Source: Blasia pusilla (taxonomy: Eukaryota). Taken from it: a stretch of DNA of 64,000 nt. Under the pieces are notes generated by a model. That model was given only the letters and a program-made list of their open reading frames with translations, searched no databases and was not told the DNA's origin. Of the stretch, positions 7,336-43,812 are shown one piece after another (position 1 is the first letter of the stretch; each line of letters begins with the position of its first letter). The translations under genes were made by a program, and so were the position numbers. The DNA is taken from positions 27,590,001-27,654,000 of the forward strand of contig CM114271.1 in the NCBI GenBank assembly GCA_050084515.1, in the 5' to 3' direction.

Positions 7336-7679
7336 TGTTCCCGAAAATACCTCATATGGACAAGCAAATTGCTCTCTCTGCATGAGGAATCGCCTTGATG
7401 AGTCGCCTTGCTGATGTCGCGATGAGTCGCCTTGATGAGTAGCTCGAATCATCTCGCGATAGTTCTCTCAAATTGTCTCGCGATGAGTTGCCGTGTAAAT
7501 CGCCCCTTGGTATCTGGTCAGCTACTGTGCGGAAGAGCAATTGAGATCGCAAAACGAAAAACCGGAAATGAGCGAACCTTCCCCTATTTATACTTTTCGA
7601 GCCGTTGGGCTGACCGTTGGGTCGCATCGTCCTTTCGACAGCGACGTGCCAGCCGTTATGGAAATTTGGACGTGAAAAA

Positions 7680-19400: not shown

Positions 19401-21487
19401 TTTGTTTGCCAATTGATAGGTCGGTAATCTCCACACATCCGCCTATCCGTCCAGTTGCCATGCACATCCTTCTTGGCGAGCATGACAGTGGCAGATGCAT
19501 ACTCTCCATGCGACATCTCCACAAGTCCTACGCCAACCAAGTCATGGCTCCTACTCTGAATCAGAGCCCTCTCCCTGTCACTGTACTTGTAGCATCATCA
19601 GAAGATCGACGTGTCACTCGATAACTCAATGCGGATCCCTGGATCCTTCAGCGTACCCAAATCATGCATACTAAATGCAAAACAACTCCTATAACTCCAA
19701 AGGAACTACTGTATCCGGCGCCGCTCTCCTTTTGTCAACTTAGGGCCCATATCTGACTCCCAAGTCTCCATTTTGACTACGGTAAAACTCTCTGGTGCAG
19801 GTGTTGGTGGTTGCCATGGTGCAACCCCATCTTGGACAACAAAACTCGACTGCTCCCCAGCAGCAAACTACAGAATCGGATCTCCATTTGCAGTTTCCGG
19901 AACCACATTCAATGTTGTGGCTATCATCTCTTGGCGTACCTACAAAACATCCCAAGAAGTCCAAGGGTGTCTCTCCCAATCACCCTTGGTGTGTCGATCT
20001 CCTCGGGTCTTGCCCCCCAACCACTGCCTCAACCGTCTTGGTAGGCATGGGGCTCACCAACGCAACTTTTGTGATGTGTCGCATCCTCAAACGACGTTGC
20101 TCAGCTAATCCTAAGCTGAAAATCAATGTTAAGCAGTTCAAGTCCATCGCCTGACCCAAGACATGACGTCGTGATGCCTTTGATAGTGATGGTACCGCCG
20201 TCACTCCTGTGGGGAATCCCATCGCTTGCTCTGGCTCATCAGCGTTGGGCTCCACCAACCTCTTTACCTGGTCATCCCAAACCAAGCCAGGTCCGGCCTC
20301 CTTGAATGCATAGGAAGTGAGAAAACTCACCAATGTGGAAAAGGCTACTCATGGCATGCCAATCTTGTTGACCATAGTGAACGGCAGTTGATCATTGTGC
20401 CTCACTCCATGTGATCGACTGGCCGGACCCAATATAGAATCCACCAAAAAATTGGAGGGATGCTCCACTCTCGCATAAGCCCTCTGCAATACCTCATGTG
20501 GTACCTAGTTGGTGCACCAAAGACACGGGCCGTGTGCTCTAGAACCTACACTCGCCGCATCTAACAACACTGCAGGGCCAATCCCTGCGCGCACTTGATG
20601 TGCACTCGTCACCACACGGGACCTTGAATCGCCAAAAACTAGCACATTCTCCAAAATATATGATGGAGAATGAGGCTGATGCTCTTGTAAATGTCCCAAG
20701 ATCCGCATCATCTCCCAAAATAACCTGGACCAAGTGTCACCTAACCCACTACCTCGTCCAGCACTCGATTGGCCTTGACACGACCAACCAACAATAACCA
20801 AGTCTATGGTCCCTACCCGCTCCAAATCTTGCGCCCCCAACAATGAAATGTTCCTTGGTAGGAAACTCTAGTAACCCTGAATGGCGGACACAGACAACAA
20901 GTCGGGAAAACGAAGGCATAAGTGCGCCACATGATGAAGTGAAGCGCGCCTCACAACATCATAAATCTCCACATAAAAGTACTACTGCACGCGCACTCCA
21001 ACGTGCAAAATAGCAACTAACCCAGTGTTGATCCCTCCAAAGAGATCCAGCATCCAAATACCCTCCTCTGGGATGCACCACACAATCGGGGTGATGTCCA
21101 AAGGGGTCATAGCAACACTCCTACCTACCTGGGGTTCCTCTGACCCGTCACACTCTAAAGCAAACGTCTCGCTCCACGCGGTCTACACATGCTGAGTGGC
21201 TAAGCGTCGAAGCTCCTCAGTCGAGCCCCAAAGCAGCACCTCTCCTCCATGGACTGATGCGGCTACCATGACACTCCTCTCCATAAAAAGTCAGGAACGG
21301 GAGTATCCTCTATACGGACATGTCCCTCAATCAAATCACTAGGCCAAGTTATGGCACTCCTAAATGCTGCTAAGGTTGCCATCTCTCTTGGCCGTCGCTC
21401 GGTCACTGCACATATGAATTGAACGGGTAATGAGCTAAGGCGCCCATCACTTGACTGCCATCATGGTTTGTAGGATGCTGACTCCTC
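16429..21487 (-). mobile_element. 5'-truncated Ty3/gypsy copy G1: DNMT-RT-RNaseH-INT-PHD, ending in a B repeat
   Basis: RT (RMCGDYRPIN, PFGLKNA, YIDD), RNase H (FQLHTNWS..YGSR..EGECLA), integrase (VMVEHFSKWIE), PHD remnants ~16740-16880, purine tract GGAGGGCGA, then B repeat ending CACGACA at 16429. Confidence 0.9.
20130..21060 (-). pseudogene. DNMT3-like C5-cytosine methyltransferase domain in G1
   Basis: MLDLFGGINTGL (I), IDLVIVGWSCQG (IV), YILENV (VI), LDAASVGSRAHGPCLW (VIII), EQAMGFPTGVT (IX), RRHVLGQAMD (X). Confidence 0.85.
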
Positions 21488-21884
21488 TGTCGTGCGCATA
21501 CATATCGCTACACAACATACATCGCTAATCACATCTACACCACACAACACCGATCTTCCCCACACACGGATCGATCCACACATGTACAAAAATCAACTCA
21601 TACATATACATGGAGATCACACAACAAAAATAAAGAGTAGTAAAAATGGTACACCCGGCCCAAAACTCCACTCCTCAATCTACATCGGCATATCGAGCCT
21701 CGTCCACCCTGTGCTATCAAGGAATCTGGACGCTAGCATCCTAGTCCTATCTCACACACATACATGAGACGTGCTCCAACCGCCCAACATGAGAAAGATG
21801 GCTTAGGAAAGCCATCTTCCTCTCTTATATAGGGTTGGGAAGAGCCAAAAGGCTCTTCCCCTAAAAATAGCCTTTCCCTTGGTA
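21488..21884 (-). mobile_element. Truncated terminal repeat, second copy of the 1928-2543 repeat
   Basis: Near-identical to 1928-2323 over ~400 bp. Confidence 0.9.
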
Positions 21885-22794
21885 GGTCATCCTCAACCTC
21901 CTGAGTCTGTCCTCCACTACTAGTGAAGGCGCTCTACTAGATCTCACCGATCTATCCTAAAATACGTGAGATACGCCACACAATGGGTATGGTGTCCAAA
22001 GGTGACATTGTAGCACCCCGTCTAACTCAGGTTCCTCTTACTTATCATGCTCTTGTCCAAATGCCTCACTCTAGGTCATTTGCATATGCTCATTATCCAG
22101 TTGCAAGCTTTGAAGCCTCTCACTCGAGCCCCTCAAAGGCACCTGTCAAAGGATAGATCGATGAGATCTAGTAGAGCACCTTCAGGAGTAGTGGAGGAAA
22201 GACTCAGGAGGTTGAGGATGAGCTATTGAGGCTCCGGGAAACCTGAGGGAGTAGGTTTCCCCTTCGTTTCGGCTCATTTGGAGCCATATTGAGGAACTTA
22301 CTATTTTAGATATGTACCATTTTGAGTATATGATTGACTTTCTATTTTTGGTAAGTGGCCCTTGACCTCCTACATTAGGTCAAGAGCCAAGGATGTGACT
22401 TGGAAGCATAAGTTACCGTGGAGAGAGCTTGGAAGAGGGGAGGGGTATACCTCAAGGAGAGAGAGCTTGAGAGCTCATTCTCTTTGTTGAACCTCTTGGC
22501 ACGAGGCAGTAGAGCTATAGTCCCTTGCCTTATGAGTGTAACCGAAGCCTCTTATTAGGAGAGTGGGTTTAGTTTGACATTGAGAGAGACATGTTAGAGT
22601 GCACACATGTGAGGACTATGGTGTTGTGAGAGAGATTGGATATTACTTTATTGGAGATATTTTGGTACTTCTTGTCTCGTTGTTTGGATGCCATGAGTTA
22701 GCATGGGATCGTGCGTGTTTTGTGTGTGTGTGTGTGTGTGTGTGTGTTTGGTGATAACTATTTATGTTGTGTAGCGATGTGTATGCGCACGACA
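21885..22794 (+). mobile_element. Solo A+B terminal repeat whose 5' start and flank are inverted
   Basis: A part 22150-22650 and B part 22651-22794 ending GCGCACGACA. Its 5' start lies inverted at 21971-21885. TSD CGTA (21975-21972, minus strand) / GGTA (22795-22798). (GT)n at 22722-22746. Confidence 0.75.
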
Positions 22795-23549
22795 GGTATC
22801 CTAGCGGAGGGTATTTGAATGTTGGATCCCTTTGGAGGGATTAGCACTAGGCTGGCTGCTGTTTTGCTAGCATACGTGCGTGTGCAACAATACTTGTACA
22901 TAGATCTTGATGAGATTATGAGATGCATCTCTCTTCAACATGTGGCGCAATTATGCCTCTATTTTCCTAACTTGTTATCTACGTCAACCGTGCAGGAGGA
23001 TTAGAGTTCTTTACTGGGAGACATTTCTTAGCTAGGGGCACAAGACTTGGATCGGGCAGGGTCCGTGGGGACCATTGATTTGATCATTGCAGATTGGACA
23101 TATCATGGCCAATCGAGTGTTAGACGCAGTAGTGGTTTAGCTGACACATGGTCCAGGTTATTTTGGGAGAGGATAAAGATCTTGCAACACTTGCAAGAAC
23201 AATAGTCTTGTTCTCTAGCTTACATTATGGAGATTTTTTTTATCTTGGGCGATCCGCGGTCACGAGTGATGACAAGTATATATCAAGTGCATTCATGGGT
23301 CGGCTTTGCAATATTCTTGGATGCGGAAAGTGTAGGATCACGAGCACATCACCCACATCTTTGGTGGACCAATTTGGTACCACATGAGCTATTGAGGAGG
23401 GCATACGCAAGAGTGGAGCATCCCTCCCATTTTTTGGTGGATTCCATTTTGGCTCCAAGACGACCATCACATGCAATAAGGCACGATGATTGCCTTTCGT
23501 TAATAGTGGTCAACATGATTGGCATGTTATGCGAAACCTTTCTCATATT

Positions 23550-26500
23550 TGTCAAGTGTCTTGCATTAGAAAAGTGGTAAAGAAGCATAACTGGTGGAAA
23601 ACTGCTCTCACACTCACACACCACCATGGAGAAAAAATTTTGCAATAAGAGAAAGAGTGGAGGGTGTTCCCCTTCTCAATTATATAGGGTATGTACAAGC
23701 AACCCTAACCCTAATCTTAACCATAGTCTCGAGTAAGACTAATTGTGATTAACTAACCATAGTTAAGATAATGGCGCTGAACTAACTAACCAAGATTAAG
23801 CTTCCCTACTTCGTGTGAGTACCAAATATAGCAATTCAGGTGTTTGATGAGCTTCACTATAACTCAATCTTCAATAATCCCCCTCAAGCTCATATCGATA
23901 TCTCTAACACTTAAATCATTTCTAAACATCTCAAACTTATCTCTAGACAATGCCTTTGTAAAGATGTCAGCAATTTGCTGATCCGTACCTGTATATAAAA
24001 GATCAATTTCTCCTAAAAGCACTTTCTCTCTGATAAAATGATAGTGCACCTCAACATGCTTTGTACGAGCATGAAACACAAGGTTATTAACAAGCTTGAT
24101 GCTACTAATATTGTCTGCATATATTACACTAGGTCATAAGTTACTAATACCAATCTCAACAAGTAATCGATGAAGCCACACCGCCTCACATGTTGCATTG
24201 GTTGTTCCTCTGTATTCAGCCTTTGTTGAAGATAAAACAACTTTAGGTTGCTTCTTTGAATCCCAACTTATAACTGCACTTCCCAAAGTAAACGAAGAAC
24301 CAGATGTGGAGTGTCGATCAGACACGCTTTCTGCCCAATCAACATCTGTGAATCCTTGTAATTATAAACTTGGAGAAGGTTAAAATTGAAGGGAAGTCAT
24401 TATATATGCATGATGTGTCGCTAGGAAACCTTCATTTATGAATCTATGAACAGGATGTGTGACTCTACTTAATCTATGAAATTGTTGTTCAGAGGTAGAT
24501 GCCTCTAAAACCTGACTCAAGATCTGACTAGTGTCAATAGACTAAATACGTACTCTTCTCGTCTATGGACTCACATATTTAACTTAAAAATCTAGGATCT
24601 CTTCTAATTCAACGCTAGTACTTGGGGAATTTGAAGACAATGTCTATTGGTTTATAGTCATATTCTCCCCCTTAACAGACGAGTTTAGAGATGGAATAGG
24701 CTCAGATAGAGCATATAATGATTTTAGCTCATCAAAGATAACATCGCGACTGATACTAAGTTGCATAGAGGATGGAATATAGCACTTATATCCCTTAGTT
24801 CTATTAGCTTAACCAATGAATATACATCTTTCAGATTTGGGATCTAATTTCTTACGTATTTCAGAAGGAACATGAGCATAACAAATACAACCAAATACTT
24901 TCAAGATGGAAAAATCAGGTTTACTTCTTGGAGTCTTATCATAAACTCCTCTTGTTGGAATTCGGTTGATCAAGAAGACTACACACGCTACATCCTCTAT
25001 CCAATACACCATAGGCATGTTCTTCTCATTCAGCATACCTCGTGGCGCCTCAACAATATATCGATTCTTCCTCTTAGCCACTCCATTTGATATGGGGTGT
25101 AACATCAAGTCACTTGACGTTGGATGTCATTCTAACGTAAGTAATCATCAAACTCTTGAAAGATATCCTCCTCCTCCTCCATCTCAACGCAATTTTGGAA
25201 TGTGTTCTCCAGTCTGCTTCTCTACTAGAACTCTGAATGTTTGGAATATTGAGAATACCCATATATAACTAAAGAAGTCATCAATAAATGAAACAAAATC
25301 CTTGCAACCACTAAGACTATGTTGTAATGTTGTCCACAAGTCATTGTGAATCAACTCCAATATCTTGGATGCTCTTCTATCTTACTTTGGAAAAAGAAAT
25401 CTAGCTTGTTTTCAAAATTGACAAGCAGGACATACCTCTAACGTAGGAGGACTCGTTAATTTAGGAAGTCCTATTACTATATTAGATTATGAAAGACTCT
25501 GTAATCTTTGAAGATTCATATGTCCAATTCTCTTATGCCACACATTTAGATCTGTGACTTGTTGGCCACTTTGACCATACATTGTTGTTTGAATCTTTGG
25601 CATAGAAACATCTAATTTGAACATTCTGCCAGATCTACTTCCTTTGGCTATTGTAGTCTGGTCATCCATTATTTCAATTAAACAACCATTTATTTTAAAC
25701 TTCACTTGATAACCCTATTCTATTATTGTCCTATAGAGATCAAGTTTCTTGCAATGGTAGGACCATAGAGAGCATTTTCAAGAGCACAAAGACCATCTGA
25801 TGCTATCGGAACTTTACCAGTCTGCGTGATATGCTGAGTGTCATCCCCTATGAGCACAATTGAAGGATCTTTCACTGGCTCCATACTACTAAACCATTTA
25901 GCTTATTAGATCATATGATTTGATGCACAAGAGTGAATATACCAATTTGTTGTCAAATCTTTCTTGATCATTGCTCCCATATGATGAGTCATAACCAAGA
26001 AATGCTCAATTTGTGAATGTTGTTGTTCTTGGTACTGCCCTTGGTGTTATTGCTCCAGATAGTTTCGTTGTTATAAGGCTTCTATTCTCATATCTATCTT
26101 ATTTTTGAAGCAAAAATTTGCATAATGATCCTTTATCCCATAGTAATTGCAAGATCCAAGGATCCTCTATTGTTGACCTCGATCCAAACGGTTTCTACCA
26201 TCATCATCTTGTAATTCTGTCTCGTACTGATTCATAGTTGATTGAGTGATGTTATATTGAGTGTCTTTTCCTCCATAGGTTTGATATCCACCACGACCAC
26301 GGAAGTTTCTACCACGACCCCTGCCTCTGTTTGATCCATAATCTGCAAATAGCACACTCTCTTGTAGACTAGACGAGCGAGCGTTGCCTACTAGACGCAT
26401 CTCTTCACTGATTAACAATGGCACTAACTCTTGAAAGGTTAGATACTTCTCTCTCACATAGATAGAGATCTCAAAGGACTTGTAATCCTTTGGAAGGCCT

Positions 26501-27343
26501 TGAAGAGTGAAAAAAATCAGATCATCATCTTCTACTGTCACTGCAATGCTATTCAACTGATCAACAATATGTGTGATACTCAAAATATAATCATTAATGC
26601 TCTGCGATTCTTCCCTCACTTCGTTCAATTTTTGTTTCAATTGAAGCTTTATGGCCGTTGTAGATGTCTGGAACAAATTTTCTAATGCATCCCAGTCAAC
26701 CTTCGGATTATCAACATCTTGAATATGACCTATCATTGGGGAATTGATCGTTATTGAAATGTAGTGGATTACTTGCCTTGCGCGTTTGTTCCAAACGCGA
26801 ACATTCAAGTCTATTGAGTCACCTTCTGGCTTGGCCTCATCACCTATGACAAGCTCCCATAATTCTTGACCCATGAGGAATTATTTCATGTGAAACTTCC
26901 AGACATTGTAAGTTTGCTTATCTAGTTTCTCGCTTGTGATTGTTGTTGAGGAATACTCCATCACGAACAATTTCACTCACAAAAACGTAATTCCAGACTC
27001 TCTAGTGCTCCAATTGAAACATAGACCACTCTTTATCATAAATCAACCTGAAATTTGCCAAAATTGATCAATTGTATGAAAGAACTAGTCGAAATTGGCT
27101 TGTAGAGAGCAAATTGCACAACTTTTCTTCACTAATTGCACTTTCCTAGACTCAAATTGCTATTGCATGAGCTCAGAATGTCATAATTGAGCAATTTTGG
27201 ATGCATTGGAAAGCTCTCAATGAGCTCTACAAGACAATAAGAGCTTAATTGACTAACCAAGATTAAGCTTTCCTATTTCGTGTGAGTACCAAATGTAGTA
27301 ATTCAGGTGTCTCATGAGCTTGACTGTAACTCAATCTTCAATA
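23550..27343 (-). mobile_element. Decayed, internally deleted Ty1/copia retrotransposon inserted in the G2 DNMT domain
   Basis: Copia gag (26167-26874), GAG-pre-integrase WHKRIGH, integrase NGVAKRKNR..VFGC..KLDPKS, RNase H HARTKHVEVHYHFIRE. Most of RT is missing. PPT GAGGGGGAT next to the 3' LTR (23550-23876). A 5' LTR remnant ends TCTTCAATA at 27343. Confidence 0.9.
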
Positions 27344-28105
27344 CTCACTTCTTATGCATATAAAGAGGCTAGTCCGGATCCTGACTTGGTTTGGGATGGC
27401 CAGACACAACGGTTGGAGCCAAATGTTGATGAGCGAGAGCAAGCGATGAGGTTTTCCATGGGAGTGACGAAAATATTGACACTATCAAGGGCATCATGAC
27501 ATTATATCTTGGTTGAGGCAATAGACGTTAATTTCTTGACATGGATTCTCAACTTCAGAGTAGTGAAGCAACTTGGATGAGGTTGCGACAAATCATTGTT
27601 GTTGCTTTTTTGAGCCATTTCTTGAACCAAGACGGTTCAGGCAATGCCCGGGGGCCAGATCTGAGGAGATTGACATATCAAGGTTGATTGGGAGATACGA
27701 CTTTAGACTTCTTGGGATATCTTGCTAGTACATCGTGAGATGGCAGCCACAACATTGAGCGTGGTACATGGTTCCGTACACCGAGGAAAGAAGAATGCAA
27801 AGTTGGTTGCAGGGGAGCGATTAAGTTTTGTCGTTTAAGATAGTGTTACACCATAGCAACCACACATACTTGTGTGAAAGAGTCCTACAATGATCACAAT
27901 GGGGATCCAAATATGGGTCCCAAGTTGACAAGAGGAGATTGACGTCGGATACATAAGTTGTGAAGGAGTCATATGAGTAATTTTGCATTTAGTATGCATG
28001 ATTTGCAATTGGGTACGCTGAAGGGTCTAGGGATCCTCATTGAGTTGTCTAGTGACACGTGGATCTTCTGACAACCTTATAGGTATAATGATATGGAGAG
28101 GGCTC

Positions 28106-28473
28106 TATCATGACCATACGGATTATGTCATAGAGTATAGAGTGCTAGTAGAGGCCATACCTTATGTAGGGCCGTAGTGTCTAGGTAGAGATGCGATTTC
28201 ATACATAGGGTTGGGGGTTACTCAGTTGAGGGTGACTTTTCCAATAGAGCCCGCTCTTAGGTTGGAGGATATAGTGTGGAGTGTACTTAAAGAACAGTTA
28301 GTTCTTTGAGTTGAGTCTCTTGCGTTGGGAGTTAGCCTTGGTAGTGAGTAGAGCTCTTGGCTATGGTGATTCCCGCAAGCTTTGACCTGGATTCTCCCAT
28401 CGTGGAGTGGGTTTGGCTCAATTCTATGTGATTCTATACGTGTTTTATGACAGTAGGTCTTTCACGGATTTCA
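28106..28473 (+). repeat. Repeat A1 (368 bp) of G3
   Basis: Colinear and highly similar to 37350-37717; homology stops at CACGGATT(T/C)CA. Confidence 0.92.
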
Positions 28474-31400
28474 CTCAAAGAATTTGAGTAGTCTGATGGT
28501 AGCTTCGATCGTAGATCAGTAGGATCTTATTAGGGTTGATTGTGTACTCAGCCATGGATGTTCATGGCTTGTGGCCTATATTGGAGGTGGGAATCTGGTA
28601 AGTGGTTGGTTGGGAAAGAAGCGCCTTGCTGAGAGCTTTCCAACGCGCTTTAGATCGCCGGATTTCGTCAAGGGAATTGGAAGTTATCAAGGATTGAAGA
28701 TTCTGGTTCGTGTTCAAGGGTTTTTTGATGTGGAGAGCTTGGAGTGCGGAAGCTCTGCTGAAGTTCATCCACATCGGGAGAGGGTTCCTATTGCTACCTG
28801 TATTGTGATCTCATGTGAAGCTATCTGCTTGAGTGTGTGGAGTGTTGCGGATTTCTGTGTGCATGAATCTGGGCGGAAGCGCTGTCGGATTTACGATTCT
28901 GGAGGTGTATGGACAACAAGTTTGTTTGATTTTTAGCTCGGAGTAGAGAGCTTGGTTGTAGCTGATTTTTTGTGGAGAGATAGCTATGGTGGCCAATTGA
29001 ATTCTGGTCAAAACAGAGTAATTTTTGATCGAAATTTTGTGGACAGCAGACCGGAGGGGCTGGTTGGTTGGTGACTCGTCCGTTGTTGGAGACGCCTATC
29101 CTGTTGGGGGCGCCCTGGTTGGGGCTCTCTCCATAGCGAAGCATGGAAAAGCATGGCGAACGGGGCAATAGGGGCATGTCTCGAGCATTTCTCAATGTTT
29201 TGAGGATTCGAGGCAACTCGTGGTAGCTCGGGGCGAGTGGGTGTGAGAGACTGAGTAAGGAGCAAGGAGCAAGCAAGCAAGCTTGCTTGATTGGGCGTGA
29301 GGCAGTTTTTTCAGGATTTGTGAGTTGAGTGTTGCATAACTGGTCACCCATCTTTGGGCTATTCTGCCTAGAAGACGCTTAACTGCTGAATTCTTAACTA
29401 TGCTAGTGTACACACTGGTGTAGCTCATTTGGTGTTGTTTGGAGATGTGTTAGGCGCTTTATGCATCTCGGGTTTTCGGTTGATGGACCTCTAGCGCATA
29501 GTATGATGTAGCCTCTCCATGCAGGTGATATTTTTTTCAAGTGCCACTAGCACGTCATCGACCAGCGGCGGAGTAGCTATTGCGTTAGAATTGTGTGGTG
29601 GGTTCTGTGGATTCAGGGGGCGCCATGTTTGGTGGATTGTGTTACCTTGATTTCCATTTGCGATTGGAGGGTTTTCGTCGGACTTTCTGTGTTTGGATCC
29701 CTTCCATCGTTGCTTCTTTCTTGCGCGCCCATTGTTAGGGTTAACGCTGATTTCCAGAGTAGTTTTACTCCTGTATGCTACAGGTAGTGAGGCTCGAGTG
29801 ATGACCAGTAGACCATGGGAGGCTTCTTGTGGTGATGACAAGTTAGGCTGCCTACACCCATAGCTAGTAGAGCTAGAATAGTACAGCGACATCGGCGTCA
29901 CTTGGTTACTTAGTGGTGGTGATTTGGTGGTGGTGCGGCATTGGCGTTGGTCATCACAGAGTTGTCTGTTGGTCTGGTTGGGGACCGTGGTGCGGACAGT
30001 GGTGGTTTTACATGTAGTGGATTGAGGTATCGGCTACCTTTTTCACTTTCGACAGTTGATGAAGAGGAGGACGAGGGTGTTCCAAACACCGAGTCTTCTA
30101 CGTTGTTATCGAGAGTTGCAACTTCATTGATTTGGGACATGGACGGGATATATAGGGCCATGAAGGGCCCATGACGATACTTGGGTGCAATGGGCACCAT
30201 TGAGTTGGAGGAATTCATTCAGGAACGCCACATTGTTTACACCCTTCTTGGCTTGGAAGGGGTTGTTTCATCACTTGGAGGGACCACCCATGGATGATTA
30301 CCATGAGTTTAGGAAGTACCATGTTTTTGAGATTGAGGTGTGGAGATAATATTGGTCTCCAGGCTATGTGTCTATCACCCATGGTGGTATTGGTAGTAGT
30401 GCTCCTACTATGCCAGCCAGCCCGACGTTGAGTGGTACAAGTACGAGCCGGAGTGGGGTAACCACTGGAGGTACCCATGGAGGTACCAGTGGAGGTACTA
30501 GTGCCCCACCATCGTTCAGCCGGGTTGCTGAGTTCTTCAAGAGGTTGAAGAAGAACTATTAGGGAGTGAAGACAGAGAAGTTTAGGAGTCTTCAGGAATT
30601 TGAGCGAAAGACTGGTGAGAGTCTTCGTGAGGCATACACTCGTATGGGACGCTTGATTTCAGTTACCCAAGGTGTGACTGAGGCTCAGGCAGTCCAATTT
30701 TGGAATGGGATCTTGGACAGAGAGTTGCGTCGCAGGGTATGTGATGCTACTCTTATGAGTGATGATTCACCCACATTGACCCATGTGTTTGCTCTATCTG
30801 AGAAGATTGAGCTTAACATGGTGGAGGAGAGAGTGGTGACATCTGCATTCAGTAGGGATACAACTACTACTTCTCGTGTTCAACAGTCCATCTCACAGTC
30901 TCATAGTAGTGGTGGTGGTAGTAGTAGTAGTGGGAGTCGTGGGGGGTACACACGACCTCAGTCAGGTCCTAGAGGGACACTTGCGTAGAGACCATTGCCT
31001 TCATTTGCTACCCCGCAGCAAGGACAATCATGTTGGACATGTGGAGGTGATCATGTTAGGAGGTTTTGTCCCCAAGAGGATGGGAGATGGAATTTGGAGG
31101 ATGGGCCTCAGTCGGCCCCAACTCAGTGTGATCATTGCGGGAGACCAGATCATCCTTAAGAGCGTTGCTTTGATCTTCATCCAGAGTTGAGATCAGGCCA
31201 CGGCCGTGGTGAAGTAGCTCCGAGAGGCCGAGGTGGTAGAGGTGGTAGGGGTGGTAGAGGTGGACCAGTGGTTGGAGAGCCTATGGTGGCTACCCCTACC
31301 ACTACGACAAAGTCAGCTATGGCTACCAGGATTGAGCAGTTGGAGCAGAAGTTGGCTACTATGGTTGGTATCCAGCATAGAACAGGTTCGGGAGCAGGGG

Positions 31401-32790
31401 CTTCCATCTCTTATGGAGGGGATGATCTCTCTTATATGGCAAGTGCAGCACACGTTGAGGCATCAACTGCAGTTACGAGAGGAGCCACTCGAGCATCAGA
31501 GCCAGATGGTGCTATTGTGGAGTTGGACCCACACAAGGGTGAGGCTGGGAGGCAAGCTAGGCTTCCCCAATCATTCTTGTTGTCTGAGATGCTTAGGACT
31601 CCATCCATGGTTCCTTCGCAGCCTATTGAGCCTACAGTGGGGACTGAGGCATCTACATCGCGTGTAGTAGACACGGATGTAGCATCCAGTGGAGTATTGC
31701 GGATGGCAACTTCAGTGTTGGGATCCCAATTGTTTTCAGCCACGGAGCTGATGGCTTTAGGAGTTGACTTAGCTCTTGTATTTCAGCTAGCAGCCACGTT
31801 GTGTGAACGTGGGGGTGTTACTGCTACACGTGCTGAGGTGTATGAGGGTGTTGCGGTGGAGCGACCCTCTATTTCAGGTGTAGCATTAAGTACCAGTGCT
31901 ACTTGGCAAGCAACAACGGCAAAGATGGATGCATTACCAACTCGGCCACCCATTGATTGTGAGAGGCTTACACCTGGTGTATGTATGTTGGACAACCGGA
32001 GTGGGATATTCCGATTGGTGAGTCCTACAAGATAGGTGTATAGACCAAATAGATTCTTGTTAGACTCTGGTGTCCATTCTTTGATGTTGGGAAAGGCGGC
32101 ATGTATTGGTTTGGGTATTCGGAGGTCAGAGCTTGAGCCTTGCCCATTCCAAATTGAAACATCACTTGGAGGAGCCAATGATAGGTCTCAATTCATGACA
32201 CGGGAGAAGTTGTCTGTACAGTTGAGACCTGATAATGCGATTGATAGCTCCCGGTTGGGAGTACCTGCAGTGGTCACATCAGCCGAGTCATATGATGTAC
32301 TAGTTGGAGGAGCAGTATTATACCCGATGGGTTTTTAGATGGATTACTGGACTGAGACAACGTCTTATAGACCTGGTTAGCACTCCGAGGATGGACATAT
32401 GAGCCACGTTCCTGTGAGATTTATTTATGGCGTTCGACCAAGAGGCTCTTCCCCAACGGTGTTAGCATCTGTGGCTAGTTTTTGTGGAGTAGTCACTTAG
32501 CCATGAGACTTTTTGGAGGGTAACCTTTCTGCTATGGATTCTCGTGTGCATGAGGAGGTAGAGGAGGTCCCTAGTTTTGCAGCTGTGGTATCCTCATCGT
32601 TGGATGTGCCACTTTGGAGTTCAGGCGGTGCACTACGGAAGGAGGCTGATCGCCTAGTGCAGGAGGCTTGGTGTGAGGCTGTTATACGTCACGAGGAAGA
32701 GGAGGCCCACGGCGGACTCCTACTTTTGGTCCAGTAGGGTTATCCCCTTTGGATACTACACCCATTGTATGGCAATATCCGCCGGAGGGC

Positions 32791-33720
32791 ATTTGTGTGT
32801 TAGATCTCTTTGGTGGGATTAGCACTGGTTTGGCTATAGTGTTGTAGGCCGGTATTCCTGTGCAGAGATACGTGTATGTGGAGCGAGATGAGACGGCCCA
32901 GAGAGTCTCATCCCGACATATTGGTCAGTTGATGCGGAGATATCCTGAGTTGTTGCCGCCATCAGCTATTCGTGAGTACCATCATGCTTTGCCATCACAC
33001 ATTGCATTGTTAGGGATGCAGGACCTTGAGAGGGTTGGTCCTGTGGATTTGGTGATTGCTAGATGGCCATGTCAGGGTCATACACGTGTTGGTCGTGGTG
33101 AGGGATTACACGACCCTAGGTCTCGATTGTTTTGGGAGATGTTACGGGTGTTACGACATCTTGAGTTCATCGAGCACGTGCTCGGCTTACATTCTGGAGA
33201 ATGTTCCATTGTTGGGTGACACTCGGACCCGGATGATGGCGAGTGTTCATGAGGTGCGGTCTTGGATTGGACCAGCGGTGTTGTTGGATGCAGCGCGAGT
33301 TGGCTCGCGTGTACATCGTCCATGCTTGTGGTGGAAAAACTTGTTGCCTAGCGAGGTTCTACGTCGAGCATATGATGCAATGCAGCAGGATCCTTGCCTT
33401 ACAGTGGATAGTATCTTGGATATTGGGCGACTTTCTCAGGTGGTGAGGGTTATTGATCGGTCATCCATGGCAGTGGTGAACCGTGTGGGCCAGCATAGGA
33501 TGGCACTACCCACATTTGTGAGTTTTCCCTCGTCACATGCCTACAAGGAAGGTGGTCTAGAGCTTGTTTGGGATTCTCATGTGCGACAGTTGGTGGAGCC
33601 TAACGCTGATGAGAGAGAGCGTGTGATGGGATTTGCTATTGGTGTGACAGCGATTGCTTCCATTTCTGAGGGTTCACGACGTCATGTGTTAGGTCAGGCC
33701 ATGGACCTCAGTTGTTTGAC
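32791..33720 (+). pseudogene. DNMT3-like C5-cytosine methyltransferase domain in G3
   Basis: VLDLFGGISTGL (I), YVYVERD (II), VDLVIARWPCQG (IV, catalytic PC), YILENVP (VI), PAVLLDAARVGSRVHRPCLWW (VIII), ERERVMGF (IX), RRHVLGQAMD (X). Confidence 0.9.
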
Positions 33721-36700
33721 CGAGCAGCGTCGACTTCGGACTATGTCTATGGGTCTTCCACCCCTTGTGATGAGCTTGATGGCTACTTGGATGGTAGAGA
33801 CATCGGCTGGGGGCGAGGAGAATAGTATTTTGCATCCTTGGAGTAAATGGGATGTAATGGTTGGGCATGTGGAGTTGGTTGCTCATGCTGGTGGAGGAGT
33901 TATTTCCTCAAATGATGGTGTAGCTAGGGGTGTACCATCTTGTGAGGGCGTTGCATAGCAACCAATGGTGTCGTCCTCTCACTCTAGTGTGCCAGTGGAG
34001 GAGACTTGGGAGCCATTACTTGGGCCCAAGCTTAGGGGAGGTGAGAAACGACGCTTGACACAATTCCTACGTGCTTATAGGAGTTGTTTTGCCTTTAGCA
34101 TGAAGGAGTTGGGTGCTTTGGTTGGACCTGGTATACGGATTGATTTGGCTAGTGATTCGCCAATCTTCCGTCGTCCCTACCGATATAGTGATATGGAGAG
34201 GGACCTGATTCAGAGTAGGACGTTGGACCTTTTGGAGGCTGGATTAGTGGAGTTGTTGCATGGAGAGTATGCATTAGCCACAGTCATGCCTGCTAAAAAG
34301 GATGTGCATGGCAAGTACACAGATAGGCGGATGTGTGGAGATTATCGTCCTATCAATCGGCAGACCAAGGCCGATAGGTATGCCATGCCTACACCTGAGG
34401 AGATCTTTGATGTGGTGGGACAGGCAAAGATTTTCAATACTTTGGATCTTCGGGCAGGGTACCATGAGTTGCCAATTCGAGAGAGTGACAAGGCCAAGAC
34501 AACATTTTGGGGTGTCAACTGTCATGGCAAGGATGGTTTGTATCAGTGGAAATTCTAATCCTTTGGGTTGAAGAATGCACCTGCCGAGTTTCACATAGTG
34601 ATGGACAGGATCCTAGCAGGGTTGGATTTTGTTCGCTGTTATATTGATGATATTTTGGTGCTCAATAACATGGTGGAGGAGCATCACATACATTTGCAGA
34701 TTTTGTTTGAGCGGTTGAAAGCTCATGGTCTACGTTTGCATCTAGGAAAGTGTGAGTTCTTCCATGAGGATGTTGAGTACTTGGATCATGTGATCTATCC
34801 AGGTGGTTAGGGAGTTCAGCAAGCAAAGGTGGAGGCTATTGCACTTATTCCTTGTCCGGTAGATGTGAGTAGAGTTCGGGCATTCATGGGATTGGCGAAC
34901 TACTATCAGAGGTATGTGAAAGGATTTAGTACTATGGCAAAGCCTTTGAACCAATTGCTGAAATCAGATCAAGGGTGGCATTGGGAAATGATCAGGAGAG
35001 AGCTTTTGTGGATCTCAAGGCCCAGTTGGTGACGGCGCCTATCTTGAGGACACCTATCAGAGGGCGCCCATTTCAGTTACACAGTGATTGGAGTAGGTTG
35101 GAACTTGGAACGGTGTTGACACAACATGATGATGAGCACATGGAGTTTGTGGTGGCTTATGCAAGTCGTTCGAATAATGCAGCGGAGTCGCGCTATAGTT
35201 CATATGAGGGAGAGTGCTTGGCAGTAGTGTGGGCTATGGCACACTTTAGGTATTACTTTTTTGGCACACAGTTTACCCTAGTTACTGATCACCAGCCGCT
35301 CAAGTGGTTGATGGAGTCTGACAAGCTTACAGGGAAGCTTGCACGGTGGGCTCTTATCTTACAGGAGTATGACTTCTAGATGGTACATAGACCTGGGATT
35401 GCCAACCTTGATGCTGATGGGTTGAGTAGGAACCCATGTACTAGCCAAGAGGATGCAATTGGGGCTAGATGGCATGGCGAGGTTGATGAGGAGATGGTGC
35501 CAAGTTGGCATGCATCTGCCTTTTTATGTTGGTTAGGGGTGGACTCTAGTATGGAGGACCACATGACATCTTACTCTAGTCAGAGGGTAGATGGTCAGCC
35601 TTCAGATCCTAAGGTTGGAGATTATGGTACGGATCAGCGTGATATTCATGATGATGCATTGGTGTTGGAGTTCCTACGGACCAGTAGGGTGCCAGGCATA
35701 GTGAGTACCAAGGAGCGAGATCGTGTTCTTCAACGTGCTAAGAGGTATCGATTGGAGGGAACACATATTCTCCGTGTGTGGGAGGATGGTAGAGTATGAG
35801 TAGTGCCGCATTTGGATCAGAGAGAGCGCATTGTGCGACATGCCCATGAGGAGTTGGGACATTTTGGGGTAAAGCGTACGTATAGCTTACTCCTTGGTCA
35901 GTATTGGTGGCGTGGCATGCATACTCAAGTGCAGCAATTGGTGTCACGTTGTATAGTTTGTGACCAGGTGAGGGCATCATTCTATGCCCCTACACCACAG
36001 TTACACCCCTTGCCTATTATGGGGTTGGGTTACCGTTGGAGTGTGGACTTTGCGGGACCGTTATCATTGACTGTACGACATCATCGATATGTGTTGGTGA
36101 TGGTGGAGCACTTCTCCAAGTGGATTGAGTTGGTGGCATTACCTGACAAGGCAAGTGAGGGAACGGCATATGCATTTCTTGATAGAGTGCTGAGTCATTT
36201 TGGTGCACCAGCTGAAGTGTTGACCAACCAGGGTACAGAGTTTCAGGGTGAGTTTCAGGTCTTGTGTGACAAGGCGTTCGTTGATCATCAGACCACGTCT
36301 CGAGATCATCCAGAGGCGAATGGTTTGGCTGCAGGTGTGGTTTAGACGGTGAAGAGCGCATTGCGCAAGTATGGCCTACAGAAGGGGCATCTTGGAGACT
36401 GGGATATTCAATTGCCATGGTTAGCCATGGGGTATAGGTTCAGTTGCCAAGCATCCTTGGCTTCCTTCTCACCTTATTTTCTATTATACGGCCGAGATCC
36501 GGACTTGCCAACAGCAATTCGTCGAGAGTCTAGTAAGGTGGTGAACCTTGATGACCCAGAGATATGGATGAGAGTGTGTTCTCAGCGGGCAGAGCTCTTT
36601 CGGAGAGTTATGCCAACAGCCTTTGAGAATCTTGCCATTGCTGAACACAAGGATATGTTGCGGTATGCAACCATTCGGGGTGGAGGTTATTGATTCCATA

Positions 36701-36926
36701 TAGGGGAATATATCTATTTGCAGCATATTGCACCGACAACAATGGATGTGACGGCAAGCCACACTATTTTACGAGTGCGCGAGGTGCTAGCTTGTGGAGT
36801 TCTCATATTAAAGGGTCGTGATGGAGTTTTTTGGAAGGACCATATGCGTAATTATGCGCCATGTCATCTTCCAAATGTGGATGGTACTGTTGACCCAAAC
36901 TTAGTCATGATACGTGCTAGCTTGAG

Positions 36927-37066
36927 GTGCATGTTGTGTGGGTCTACTGGTAACGTAGCCCGTATATTGGTGTGTGATCGATGTTCTAGGGGTTGGCACA
37001 TGATGTGTTTGACTCCACGTATGGATGTTGTTCATACTGGAAGGTGGGTTTGTCCATGATGTACTT
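36927..37066 (+). other. PHD finger (C4-H-C3) at the integrase C-terminus
   Basis: CMLCGSTGNVARILVCDRCSRGWHMMCLTPRMDVVHTGRWVCP*C. Confidence 0.9.
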
Positions 37067-37241
37067 AGGAGAGGTAGATGACTTGATCTTTGCATGATAT
37101 GGATTACAGATGTGCGACTGATGATGGGGCAACCTAGCACCCGGCCTTCTGATTCTTGCACCCACGAAGGTGTATAGCATGTAGTAGATGTATAGGGCTA
37201 CCTGGGAGTTAGAGGGACCTAACCACCAGTTTGGGGGGCGA

Positions 37242-37823
37242 GTTGTGGTACACGGGTATTTGTGGATGCTCTCGTCTATGTTATGTATGTATGTGAGTTT
37301 GATATGTCAGCAATGTATGTTGTATGACGATGTGGATTCGCACGATAGCTGTCATGACCATACGGATTATGTCGTAGAGTATAGTGTGCTAGTAGAGGCC
37401 ATACCTTATGTAGGGCCGTAGTGTCTAGGTAGAGATGCGGTTTCATACATAGGGTTGGGGGTTACTCAATTGAGGATGACTTTTCCAGTAGGGCCCGCTC
37501 TTAAGTTGGAGGATATAGTATGGAGTGCACTCAAAGAACAGTTAGTTCTTTGAGTTGAGCCTGTCGCGTTGGGAGTTAGCCTTAGTAGTGAGTAGAGCTC
37601 TTGGCTTTGGTAGTTCCCGCAAGATTTGACCTGGATTCTCCCATCGTGGAGTGGGTTTGGCTCGATTGTATGTGATTCTATACGTATTTTATGATAGTAG
37701 GTCTTTCACGGATTCCAGTTGTGGTACACTTGTGTTTCTGGATGCTCTCATCTATGTTATGTATGTATGTGAGTATGGTATGTCAGCGATGTATGTTGTA
37801 TGACGATGTGGATTCGCACGACA
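37242..37823 (+). repeat. 3' B1-A2-B2 repeat block of G3
   Basis: Purine tract GGGGGGCGA (37233-37241), B1 (106 bp), GC spacer, A2 (368 bp), B2 (106 bp) ending CACGACA. Confidence 0.92.
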
Positions 37824-40764
37824 GCTCTGATTCACAGTAGGAGACATGACTTGGTTGGAGTAGGACTAGTGGAGATGTTCCATAGAGAGTATGCATCTGC
37901 CACTATCATGCTCACCAAGAAGGATGTTCATGGCAACTGGACATATAATCAGATGTGTGGAGACTATCGACTTATCAATCAACAAATGAAGTCCAATAGA
38001 TATGTCATGCCCACTCCTGAGGAGATCTTTGATGTTATACGACATGCAAAAGTCTTCAATTCATTCGAAACCCAAGCCAGATACCATCAATTGCCTATTA
38101 GATTGGAGGACATGTAGAAGATGATATTTTTGGGCATCGATCCATACAGGATAGATTATTTGTACCATTGGCGGTTCTAATCATTTGGGTTAAAGAACAC
38201 CCCAATAGAGTTTCAGAGGGTCATGGAAAGGATCTTGGCTGGTTTGGATTTTGCGAGATGTTACGTTGATGAGACCGTAGTCTTTAGTCTCATAGTTGAG
38301 GAGCATAAACGACATGAGTTGACATCTAGAGAAGTTGTTCTGAAGATTATTACAATTATATGGGCTGAAGGTACATCCAAGCAAGTGCAAGTTCTTCTAC
38401 GATCGCATTGAATACTTGGGTCATACGATATATCCCAAATTTCCTTGATGTATAACGGACGAAGGTAGAGACTATCTTATGTATTCCACACCCTACATAT
38501 GTGAGTTGAGTTCGCGTATCCATAAGATTGGAAAAATTTTTCCAACGATACGTCAAGGATTTTAGTTTGATTGCAAAGTCACTAACCTTGCTGACCAAGG
38601 TGGATTATAAGTGGCATATGCATAAGGATGATGAGCAAGAGAGATCGTTTCAACTACTTAAGTATAGGTTGATGTCCGTGCCCATATTGAGGAGAGATAT
38701 TAGAAGACATCTTTTCCATTTTCATGTAGATTGGAGTATGTTGGGGCTTGGAGCAGTTCTCACCTAGCATGACAATAAGGGTAGAGAGTTTATGGTGGCT
38801 TATGCTAGTTGCTCGAACAATGTTGCAAAGGCAAAGTATAGCTCGTATGAGGATGAGTGCTTAGCTGCAGTGTGGGCTGTAGCGCATTTCACGTGTTACT
38901 TATCCAAAAATCCCTTTACTATCATTGCTGACCATCAACCATTTAAGTGGTCGATGTAGTCCAAAAAACTTAAAGGGAAGATTTCCAGATGGGCTCCATT
39001 GTTGCAGGAGTATGACTTTACATGGTATGTCAACTTGGGATGCTCAACCACGATGCAAATGGTTGGGGCCGTAATCCATGCCCGAGTCAACAAGATGCGA
39101 TTGAAGCTCATTAGTATGGAGGAAGTGATGAGAAGATGGTGTTGAGATGGCATGCGTCAGTCTATTTGGGCTTGTTGGCTATGGAAAGCGAGAGTGTTGA
39201 GATTTCGATGGCGAGATCTGATATATGGAGAACCCTTAGATCTAGAGGCCAATAAGGAGGCGATAGATGGTTGTGATATCCATGACGATGGATTAGTCTT
39301 GGAATACTTACATACTAGCGGCGTTATGAGCACAATGGATGCTAGAGAGTGAAATTAGATCCTATAGCAAGCCAAAAAATTCTGGTGGAAGAGAAGGAAC
39401 ATGCTACAAGTTTGGGAGGATGGTAGAGTACGCGTTCTACCTCATCCTTCACAAAGATCATATTTGGTGTAGCCTGCCCACAAGGGGTCAGGTCACTTTG
39501 GAATAAAGAAGACGTCCAACTTGCTCCAAATATAGTATTGGTGGCGAGGCATGAAGGCTTGTGTTCAGCAGTTTATTTTCAGATACATGGTGTGTGATCG
39601 GGTCCGAGCATCGTTCAATGCTCTAACTCCAAAATTACATTCACTATCGATCATTGGTTTAGGTTATAGATGGAGTTTGGATTTGGCAAGACCTTTACCT
39701 TTGATAGAGCGCCATAGTCGTTATGTGCTGGTAATGGTTGCGTACTTCTCAAAGTGGATAGAGTTGGTTGCATTGCTTGACAAAGCGAGTGAGGGAGTAG
39801 TGTATGCCTTTCTAGATTGAGTGATGAGTCATTATGGTGCACCAGTTGAGATATTGACATACAAGTGTACAAAGTTTTGCAAGGAGTTTCAGGCCGTATG
39901 TGATCAGACGCTGATGCACCACTACACTATTTTGCGAGATCATCTTGAGGCGGATGGACTAAAGGAGTGAGTTTTTTAGACGATGAAGAGAAGTTTACCC
40001 AAGCATGGCTTGTAGAGAGATCACTTAGGAGATTGGGACCTAAAATTGCGTTGGTTGGCAATAGGATACACATTCAGCCAGTACGCGTCCTTAACATCTT
40101 TCTCACCATACTTATTGATTTTTGGCGAAAAGCCAAAATTTCCTGCCACCATTTTTTGTGATGTGAGTGATGTGTTGAACCTCAATGAACATGATGTATG
40201 GATACGAGCATGTTCTTAGATGTCTGAGTTGTTTTGGAGAGTTTTGCCCATTGTATTTTAGAACTTAGCGATTGCGCAACATCGGGATACTTTGAGGTAT
40301 CCGACTATGCGGCGAGATGGTTATCGACGATTCAGAGATCTTATTAGGGAGAATATATCCACTTGCAGCATACAACATCTAAGAAATTAGATGTGATCAT
40401 AGGATGCACCATTTTGAAAGTCCGTGATGTCTTACCATTTCGTGTTCTCTTATTGGAGGGACGTAATGCTATGGTTTGGAAGGATCATGTGCGTAATTAT
40501 GCGCCATGTCACTTTTCTAACATTGACAGTAGGGTTGATCCGAGCTTAATAATAATAATTGCACGATTGTGTTGTATGTTATGTGGTTCTGCTTGTGGTG
40601 CAACCATTCTGCTAGTCTGTGATGGATATTCGAGAGGGTGGCACATGGCATGTTTGACACCTCCTCTCACTAGGGTTCCTCTGGGATGATAGACGTGCCC
40701 CATATGTACATAGAGTAGAGACTAGGTAGTTATAAATCCATACTCATATTTGTGACATGGATGA

Positions 40765-42946
<2,182 letters not shown>

Positions 42947-43087: not shown

Positions 43088-43640
43088 TTGGAGATATTTT
43101 GGTATTTGATCATATCGATGTTTACCATGAGTTAGTATGGTATCTTGTGTGTTTGTCTATGTATTCAATGACAACTATGTGTGTTGAGTAGCGATGTGTA
43201 TGCGCACGACAGTTGTCACGTGTTTTAGGATATATCGAAGAGTTCATAGTAGAGCATCTTCTAGGATACTATAGGATAGTCTTAAGAGATCAAGAATGAC
43301 CTCCTAAGGCCTCATGTATCCGAAGAGAGCAAGTTTTCCCTTTGTTTCAACTCATTTGGAGCTATATAGAGAATTTACTATTTTGAGTAAGTTATCGTTA
43401 TGAGTATAGTTGAATTTCCACTTTAGAACGTAGCCCTTCATCCCTACAACAAGTCAAGAGCCAAGGAGGTGACTTGCGAGCATAAGTTACCATGAAGAGA
43501 GCTGGGGAGAGGGAAGGAGATATAGCTTTGGAGCTTATTCTCTATTTGTTGAACCTCTTGGCATGAGGCGGCATAGCTATGGTCCTCCTTGCCTAATGAG
43601 TAACCCAATACTTTCATTAGGAGAGTGGATTTGGCTTGAC

Positions 43641-43681
<41 letters not shown>

Positions 43682-43812
43682 TGATTTATTAGAGATATTT
43701 TAGAACTCAATTGTCTTGATGTTTAGATGTCATGAGTTAGTATGATATCTTGTGTGTTTTTGTATTCAATGAACACGATATATAGTGTGTAGTAATATGT
43801 ATGAACACAACA
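43088..43812 (+). repeat. 3' B1-A2-B2 repeat block of G2
   Basis: GGAGGGCGA tract, B1 TTGGAGATATTTT..GCGCACGACA, GT spacer, A2 TGTCACGTG.., B2 TTAGAGATATTTT..GAACACAACA. Confidence 0.85.

Follow-up and report, generated by a model that had tools for sequence, protein, structure and literature searches.

In this work, we analysed a stretch of 64,000 nucleotides of Blasia pusilla DNA (contig CM114271.1, positions 27,590,001 to 27,654,000 of the forward strand), hereafter called the window. Its positions 28106-37823 very probably represent a decayed Ty3/gypsy long terminal repeat (LTR) retrotransposon with a DNA methyltransferase domain, and the DNMT3-type cytosine-5 (C5) enzyme in it is very probably a regular, selected part of the coding capacity of a whole family. 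Gypsy elements with a Dnmt3 domain are an already published kind, represented by KnitGypsy-Dnmt3. The new additions are the presence in land plants, the size of the family, two architectures, the position of the enzyme in the first open reading frame (ORF1) before a leaky-type stop, a PHD finger on the integrase, and current transcription. All three copies of the family in the window are dead, broken by stops and frameshifts.

Anatomy of the main element

The window DNA was read as stop-to-stop frames and searched with Pfam. The main element showed the Ty3/gypsy order of protease (PR), reverse transcriptase (RT), RNase H (RH) and integrase (IN), the last being of the DDE (rve) type. With LLDSG upstream (32036-32338) and RT starting at 33959, the methyltransferase lies between PR and RT. 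The element is bounded by direct terminal repeats with TA(TG)...CA ends and by a 4-bp target duplication, GCTC. Its features are as follows.

28102-28105, plus strand: target-site duplication GCTC, 5' copy
28106-28473, plus strand: A1, 5' long terminal repeat, beginning TA (TG in A2) and ending CA
30139-32035, plus strand: gag region, broken across several frames; identity to Marchantia proteins 60-75%
32036-32338, plus strand: aspartic protease (LLDSG), an open reading frame (ORF); 75-78% identical to PR of Marchantia and Sphagnum relatives
32686-33955, plus strand: DNMT3-like C5 cytosine methyltransferase domain, motifs I, IV, VI, VIII, IX and X in canonical order
33956-33958, plus strand: conserved in-frame stop TAG, then CAA CCA; ORF1/ORF2 boundary and candidate leaky stop
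33959-34810, plus strand: reverse transcriptase, one premature in-frame stop; 79-84% identical to RT of Marchantia and Sphagnum relatives
34930-35379, plus strand: RNase H (PF17917 5.2e-35, PF17919 5.1e-29)
35800-36693, plus strand: integrase, H2C2 zinc finger and rve core (PF17921 6.9e-17, PF00665 2.3e-12), premature stops
36694-37059, plus strand: PHD finger at the C-terminal end of the integrase (PF00628 1.5e-8)
37241-37349, plus strand: B1, internal short repeat, preceded by a G-run: GGGGGGCGAG
37350-37717, plus strand: A2, 3' long terminal repeat, TG...CA
37718-37823, plus strand: B2, terminal short repeat, ending CA; its repeat match to B1 runs 37718-37826
37824-37827, plus strand: target-site duplication GCTC, 3' copy

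The gag region opens with MDGIYRAMKGP, and the Marchantia relatives open alike (MDGMYGAMKGPRRYSG). The RVT_1 match of Pfam is weak in this decayed copy, and the protease of the intact relative L039 gives an Asp_protease_2 match in the same place, below the cut-off. The PHD finger on the integrase is also found in ORF2 of L039 (L039:5086-8226), in L059 and in P0022. In the methyltransferase of the main copy, the frame is interrupted by a single in-frame TAG (32845-32847) and a single frameshift (overlap 33197-33219), and the remainder of the copy has more stops and at least one additional frameshift.

The two A repeats are 93.4% identical (366 nt, A1 being aligned to 37352-37717). The B repeat, of 109 bases and with 91.7% identity between B1 and B2, flanks A2 on both sides and does not follow A1. 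Because of this extra B at the 3' end, the termini are split direct repeats and not two plain LTRs, and the same A-coding-B-A-B arrangement occurs in the distant relatives L042, L043 and L044. In the window as well as in L043, the G-run stands before B1 and not before A2. Inspection by eye beside A1 revealed no primer binding site, and no terminal repeats were found within the 9317-base contig of L039, the ends of which are out of view.

Motifs and class of the methyltransferase domain

The motifs LFGG(ISTG) and WPCQG were located in frame 1 of 32686-33219, and ILENVPLLGD, HRPCLWW, ERERVMGF and LGQAMD in frame 2 of 33056-33958. Motifs I (FxGxG), IV (PCQ), VI (ENV), VIII, IX and X are therefore all present in the main copy, and the minus-strand copy has SCQ instead of PCQ. 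In seven aligned intact relatives, FxGxG, PCQ, ENV, the RxR-type motif VIII and GQ are invariant (7/7). Pfam family PF00145, with a gathering cut-off of 22 bits, matched the main copy at 23.2 bits (E 5.5e-5, 32848-33219; 22.5 bits on P0001, where the stop is read as X), the minus-strand copy at 33.3 bits (20505-20867), the Marchantia/Calypogeia relatives P0005, P0012 and P0006 at 35.1-35.6 bits, and ORF1 of the intact L039 at 51.1 bits. The C-terminal half alone (33056-33958) had no Pfam match.

Searched against the Protein Data Bank (PDB), the N-terminal half of the main copy alone matched DNMT3A at 1e-7, and its C-terminal half alone gave weak matches, the best with E 0.083 (DNMT3B), so a profile of intact relatives was needed. 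This profile, an alignment of seven intact domains, matched DNMT3A at 7e-20 in three collinear stretches, DNMT3C at 3e-19, DNMT3B at 7e-19, DRM (4onj) at 1.8e-10 and HaeIII at 1e-7. DNMT3A/B/C are thus the best among solved structures, to which this class comparison is limited, by at least nine orders of magnitude. The DRM matches only via its rearranged C-terminal part, and the window domain is therefore read as non-permuted. An AlphaFold2 (AF2) model of the domain (pLDDT 69.3, pTM 0.72) had DNMT3B/3A/3C as top Foldseek matches, with E from 4e-14 to 1e-11, and the structure neighbours of an Atlas model were DNMT3A clusters (TM 0.66-0.67). N-terminal PWWP or ADD reader domains were not found by Pfam in P0005, P0006 and ORF1 of L039. 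Judged from sequence profile, predicted fold and Atlas structure, the domain is complete, non-permuted and collinear with DNMT3, and closest to DNMT3A/B/C.

An earlier note on this stretch, made from the letters alone, had described a full set of C5-methyltransferase motifs in canonical order between LLDSG and RT, and each motif that it listed lies in its place. Its view that the domain is closest to DNMT3 agrees with the PDB profile search, the Foldseek search and the Atlas neighbours, and the PF00145 search that it proposed gave scores above the cut-off in the main copy, the minus-strand copy and relatives. It had also placed the domain at the same position in three diverged copies, and tblastn found the other two where it had put them.

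Other copies and their nesting

The other copies were located by tblastn of pieces of the main copy against the window, with the following result.

16748-21116, minus strand: second copy, 5' truncated and with many stops; DNMT at 20007-21116, then RT, RH, IN and PHD
22804-23550, plus strand: third copy, first DNMT part; upstream without gag or PR
27338-28105, plus strand: third copy, remaining DNMT and RT start, following a 3.8-kb insertion (23551-27337)
37827-40701, plus strand: third copy, remaining RT, RH, IN and PHD, resuming beyond the nested main element

The DNMT of the second copy (20007-21116, minus strand) has 52-56% amino acid identity to that of the main copy, and its catalytic P-C is replaced by S-C. 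The DNMT of the third copy is split into 22804-23550 and 27338-27541, with 45-48% identity to the main copy; the insertion that splits it is low in G+C (0.36-0.40). RT residues 4-83 of the third copy lie at 27853-28107 and residues 83-199 at 37827-38177. As this RT breaks off at 28107 and continues from 37827, the main element is nested inside it. When the element is deleted together with one GCTC, the RT frame that it interrupts is restored, reading ...ERALIH... where the main copy has ERDLIQ. For the stretch 37827-40701, a fourth copy was considered and rejected, as it is the continuation of the third copy.

Reading frames and the candidate leaky stop

In the intact L039, ORF1 (976-5082, 1369 aa) contains gag, protease and DNMT, and ORF2 (5086-8226, 1047 aa) contains RVT_1, RNase H, integrase and PHD finger. 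Both are in the same frame and are separated by a single in-frame TAG. The methyltransferase is thus the C-terminal part of a Gag-PR-DNMT ORF1, directly before RT-RH-IN-PHD, and public ORF1-type proteins terminate at the corresponding stop position. A metagenome scan gave 76 related loci, 51 of them with an RT start. An in-frame stop within 400 nt upstream of the RT start was found in 48 of these 51, the loci without it being L058, L059 and L062, all of which have the RH-DNMT-IN architecture described below. CAA or CAG comes directly after the stop in 44 of the 48 junctions (28 TAG-CAA, 14 TAA-CAA and 2 TAG-CAG), and in 28 of these 44 the DNMT match is in the same frame as the conserved stop, which corresponds to 28 of the 51 loci being in frame with stop and RT. 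The main copy reads GCA TAG CAA CCA ATG at 33953-33967, and the junction of the intact L039 reads TAG CAG TTA.

In plant viruses, the classical context of a leaky stop is a UAG with CAR after it (consensus CAR-YYA), and the Pol of gammaretroviruses is produced through read-through of a UAG. A conserved in-frame stop with such a 3' context stands between the two frames, its promoting effect being general knowledge from these viruses. With this context conserved, RT-RH-IN-PHD would be made by read-through, and Gag-PR-DNMT would be the abundant product. The likeness to the gammaretroviral and plant-virus leaky stops consists in the in-frame UAG before RT and the following CAA/CAG, whereas in the Blasia family the upstream frame also holds the protease and the methyltransferase.

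Relatives, two architectures and selection

A word-indexed search with the C-terminal half returned 23 proteins, among which were many Marchantia polymorpha gag-PR-DNMT models (~1250-1330 aa), one protein of Calypogeia fissa and some of Sphagnum fallax and S. troendelagicum. An exhaustive profile search gave 11,384 proteins with E<=1e-3; cluster representatives with E<=1e-30 numbered 438, and in the best 150 of these the whole domain was matched, with at least 225 bits each. Most family members are unnamed metagenome or transcriptome proteins. The window domains were then mapped onto 332 collected proteins. Both DNMT halves were present in 316, and an architecture could be assigned to 264 of these, the remainder being 51 too-short proteins and one chimeric gene model (P0022).

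The window-type order PR-DNMT-RT(-RH-IN-PHD) was found in 66 proteins and the order RT-RH-DNMT-IN-PHD in 198. One branch separates the two architectures in each of the FastTree trees of DNMT (57 and 195 rows), RT-RH (8 and 123) and integrase (6 and 159). In a quick IQ-TREE tree built from 54 DNMT rows (22 and 32 drawn at random, with the named proteins included), the separating branch had an SH-aLRT value of 99. All named PR-DNMT-RT members are streptophytes (Marchantia, Calypogeia, Sphagnum, Closterium NIES-53 and NIES-54), and all named RH-DNMT-IN members are chlorophytes (Scenedesmus sp. PABB004, Monoraphidium neglectum and Haematococcus lacustris). These sequence trees are unrooted; their simplest reading, which they do not demonstrate, would be a single acquisition and a single later relocation.

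Selection was assessed by comparing the main copy codon by codon with each of the other two window copies. The proportions of non-synonymous (pN) and synonymous (pS) differences were 0.27 and 0.32 against 0.71 and 0.71 for DNMT, 0.235 and 0.25 against 0.635 and 0.635 for RT, and 0.16 and 0.23 against 0.73 and 0.69 for integrase. In qualitative terms, these values suggest that the DNMT was constrained about as strongly as RT while the sublineages diverged.

Some further observations concern the relatives. The DNMT domains of liverworts (Marchantia, Calypogeia) and Sphagnum (P0006, P0017, P0005) are joined by short branches of 0.14-0.19 changes per site, and the window copy is about equally close to the liverwort and the Sphagnum copies; the short branches could be due to slow evolution or to transfer between bryophytes. 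Public annotations of family proteins (P0005, P0004, P0021, P0208, P0250 and others) read 'DNA (cytosine-5-)-methyltransferase', 'site-specific DNA-cytosine methylase', 'transposase InsO family protein' or hypothetical protein, and P0268 is filed under a bacterial metagenome-assembled genome.

Transcription and abundance

Three RNA-seq runs with the same species label as the best-matching DNA run were aligned to window positions 27900-38000. Each run gave 3146-3631 reads at 92-99% likeness and 6-10 reads at >=99%, which means that sister copies are the source of the RNA reads. The first mate fell almost exclusively on the minus strand, which in usual stranded libraries indicates sense RNA. RNA depth over the DNMT was 30-64. 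Inside A1 the depth increases from 3.5-4.3 to 26-34, and where A2 ends it drops from 46-65 to 1.8-4.5, with very little coverage of B2; molecule ends are clustered at 37511-37674, within A2. This profile fits A acting as an LTR of the U3-R-U5 type. At least one of the frame breaks of the main copy is not shared by the RNA reads. As for abundance, 168,041 of the 10,516,715 contig records of DNA run X1 fall on the element, and the family is thus a major repeat in that run.

Two unusual junctions were observed in the RNA. Reads in the three runs (16, 29 and 45) connect 35602 with 36611 through 9 intervening letters of other sequence, the ends not being GT..AG, which points to a transcribed sister copy in which ~1 kb (linker and integrase core) is missing or replaced. 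Furthermore, 3-8 reads per run join 28423 to 37379, the end part of A to the start part of A with B absent, as would be seen if some copy had a tandem or circle-like A-A junction.

The earlier note had also taken the domain for a stable part of a family rather than a one-off capture, and this was borne out by its presence in 3/3 window copies, the in-frame junctions, the 264 architecture-assigned proteins and pN far below pS. The lineage that it called abundant and belonging to land plants does have named relatives in Marchantia polymorpha, Calypogeia fissa and Sphagnum, and the contig records of DNA run X1 attest its abundance. Two further checks that it had suggested came out in the same direction: the DNMT of the intact L039 is in one frame with pol, separated by a single TAG, and the non-synonymous differences in the DNMT are far below the synonymous ones, as in RT, with qualitative meaning only.

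Comparison with known systems

Dnmt3 domains were described in DIRS elements of Symbiodinium and in an LTR Gypsy element of Klebsormidium nitens, where they are under purifying selection (de Mendoza 2018, PMC5890265; here and below, statements on this and the other cited sources refer to the parts of them that were consulted). The statement in the earlier note that such elements had been reported in dinoflagellates and a charophyte alga is thereby confirmed. The Blasia family resembles KnitGypsy-Dnmt3 in being an LTR element with Gypsy domains, in having within its polyprotein coding region a Dnmt3-type domain that is intronless and non-rearranged, and in its streptophyte host; the key residues are kept, there is purifying selection, and the repeats are arranged A-coding-B-A-B as in DIRS (PMC5890265). 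The DIRS-like repeat structure of the DNMT-bearing Klebsormidium Gypsy elements is given in the legend of Fig. 4c (PMC5890265). In our material, the Dnmt3-type domain likewise lies within the polyprotein frame, and A-coding-B-A-B repeats occur together with Gypsy domains. The hosts differ, since those of the Blasia family are land plants (named liverworts and Sphagnum) and, in the second architecture, chlorophytes. Our protein searches, which scored only word-sharing candidates and are weak evidence either way, returned no Klebsormidium proteins.

SymbioDIRS-Dnmt3 shares with the Blasia family a Dnmt3-type domain in a retrotransposon Pol polyprotein and split repeats (PMC5890265), but it is a DIRS element with a tyrosine recombinase, whereas in the Blasia family a DDE integrase that carries an H2C2 finger is combined with TG..CA ends and a target duplication of 4 bp. 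The cellular DNMT3A/3B/3C are the best matches by profile, fold and motif order, with ~21-24% identity over the whole catalytic domain. In contrast to them, the domain of the family is embedded in a Gag-PR fusion, has a longer stretch between motifs VIII and IX, and is accompanied by no PWWP or ADD domain that could be found; DNMT3s of some lineages are likewise without companion domains (PMC12344493). Plant DRM has a related catalytic domain (4onj, 1.8e-10), but it is circularly rearranged, and only profile positions 14-141, the N-terminal part, align to the C-terminal part of DRM. Chromoviruses are alike in having a chromatin-reader module appended to the C-terminus of the integrase (Neumann 2019, PMC6317226); their module is a chromodomain, whereas the integrase reader of the Blasia family is a PHD finger.

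With regard to earlier reports, the consulted part of PMC5890265 does not mention Marchantia, Physcomitrella, Sphagnum or Chlamydomonas, and that of the plant LTR survey behind REXdb (PMC6317226) has no occurrence of methyltransferase, PHD or Marchantia. A Chlamydomonas Gypsy element with a PHD domain and without DNMT appears in a figure legend of PMC9940879. In the consulted parts of PMC12344493 and of the preprint 10.64898/2026.05.21.726589, de Mendoza (2018) is the sole source cited for streptophyte Gypsy-DNMT3. A search of full-text literature, mostly outside subscription journals and supplements, did not bring up any DNMT-bearing LTR element reported from a land plant or chlorophycean.

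Possible role of the methyltransferase and alternative explanations

We hypothesize that Gag-PR-DNMT is the main translation product of the element and that occasional read-through of the leaky stop would yield Gag-PR-DNMT-RT-RH-IN-PHD. The methyltransferase would thus be made in Gag-like amounts, released by the protease, and may travel with the particle or the pre-integration complex. There it could methylate the new DNA of the element itself or the neighbourhood of the insertion, probably at CG, as shown for SymbioDIRS-Dnmt3, which methylated CG de novo in yeast (PMC5890265). The PHD finger of the integrase may in turn read a histone mark and so influence the choice of target chromatin.

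Several points weigh against this reading or limit it. All three window copies are broken, and the minus-strand copy is without the catalytic proline (WSCQG). The methylation activity of the family is a prediction from sequence and model. The confidence of the AF2 model is moderate, with the motif VIII-IX region poorly modelled (pLDDT ~30), and the DNMT3 class was assigned by profile and fold. Read-through is suggested by sequence context, in which 14 of the 44 junctions have TAA and most continue as CAA CCC, not as the CAR-YYA of the viral consensus; moreover, the stop is missing from the relatives P0031, P0208 and P0213, each of which is a single ORF. The sister copies behind the RNA reads, mostly 90-99% alike, are not provably intact. 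Because synonymous sites are saturated (pS ~0.7) and the alignments were picked by protein similarity, the contrast of pN and pS is qualitative only. Finally, no methylation by the Klebsormidium Gypsy DNMT could be detected in yeast, a result that its authors called inconclusive, since human DNMT3B also failed (PMC5890265).

This last result, together with the long and poorly modelled motif VIII-IX region, would suit a catalytically inert DNMT3-like module comparable to DNMT3L, acting as a structural part or as an adaptor that, for example, recruits or titrates host DNMT3 or DRM complexes. We regard such a module as improbable. An adaptor needs neither the catalytic cysteine nor the motifs that bind S-adenosylmethionine, yet FxGxG, PCQ, ENV, the motif VIII arginine and GQ are invariant in 7/7 intact domains and kept in the main copy, and its authors took the yeast negative as inconclusive, given the failure of the human enzyme in the same assay (PMC5890265). 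An active enzyme with a target other than the new DNA of the element itself, namely host chromatin near insertions, competing transposons, RNA or RNA-DNA hybrids, and with it a broader change of host silencing, is not our favoured explanation either, and we consider it rather unlikely. The place of the enzyme in ORF1 upstream of the stop predicts an abundance like that of Gag, far beyond the need of one cDNA, and the family elements are depleted in CpG even when intact, with an observed/expected ratio of 0.52-0.56 against 0.75-0.77 in the rest of the window, which fits methylation and does not reveal who deposits it. On the other hand, DNMT3-type enzymes act on double-stranded DNA. The activity shown for SymbioDIRS-Dnmt3 was on CG in DNA (PMC5890265), and the present data favour no particular target.

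That the domain came to lie in the element by accident, be it as a piece of a host DNMT3 gene into which nested transposons inserted, through a single transduplication event or as an artefact of chimeric gene models, might be suspected in a window that is a dense nest of elements, and public gene models such as P0012, P0017 and P0022 are indeed chimeric or spliced around stops. This explanation is refuted, with practically no probability left to it, by the same position in 3/3 diverged window copies, by the raw DNA of L039 with its uninterrupted 1369-aa ORF of gag, PR and DNMT, by the same order in hundreds of relatives, by a DNMT tree congruent with the RT and IN trees, and by a constraint like that of RT.

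DNA methylation is the main weapon of the host against transposons, and a transposon with its own de novo methyltransferase reverses the usual roles of the two. The Gypsy form was previously documented in one alga with few copies; it is now found abundant and transcribed in a land-plant genome, in a very large family with a defined expression logic, the enzyme standing in ORF1 before a leaky-type stop, and with a reader domain on the integrase. Tentatively, and with some reserve, we propose an old Ty3/gypsy lineage across the green lineage, equipped with a DNMT3-type writer and a PHD reader, which would exist in two forms split with their hosts: a streptophyte form with the order PR-DNMT-RT, a leaky UAG and Gag-like amounts of the enzyme, and a chlorophyte form with the order RH-DNMT-IN. 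This lineage would be still transcribed and abundant in a bryophyte and may contribute to land-plant methylomes. Since bryophytes (Marchantia, Physcomitrium) are tractable, the target of the enzyme and its beneficiary, a question since 2018, become testable with knock-outs of host pathways. Furthermore, DNMT3 gene counts in bryophyte and algal genomes will be inflated by such elements, and taxonomic labels are also affected.

Further observations in the window

Two direct repeats of ~400 bp, at 1928-2329 and 21488-21890, are 94.5% identical and 19.6 kb apart, and B-like sequence in minus orientation was detected at their ends. They could represent either the two LTRs of a further large element or the ends of members of the family. 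A-like repeats related to each other, with 72-80% identity, were seen at three places: 22149-22795, 40777-41245 and 43227-43760. The first of them is trailed by a B-like piece (22733-22795) and abuts the 5'-truncated third copy. These three repeats are probably termini of additional family members in the nest.

In base composition, the sense strand of the elements at 16-22 kb (minus) and 28-44 kb (plus) has markedly more G than C, with a GC skew of +0.20 to +0.25. The ratio of observed to expected CpG is 0.52-0.65 in these elements, against 0.75-0.77 elsewhere in the window, and 0.55 in the intact L039. Self-matches also revealed two tandem-repeat arrays with a period of ~64-67 bp, at 5661-6127 and 7743-8331.

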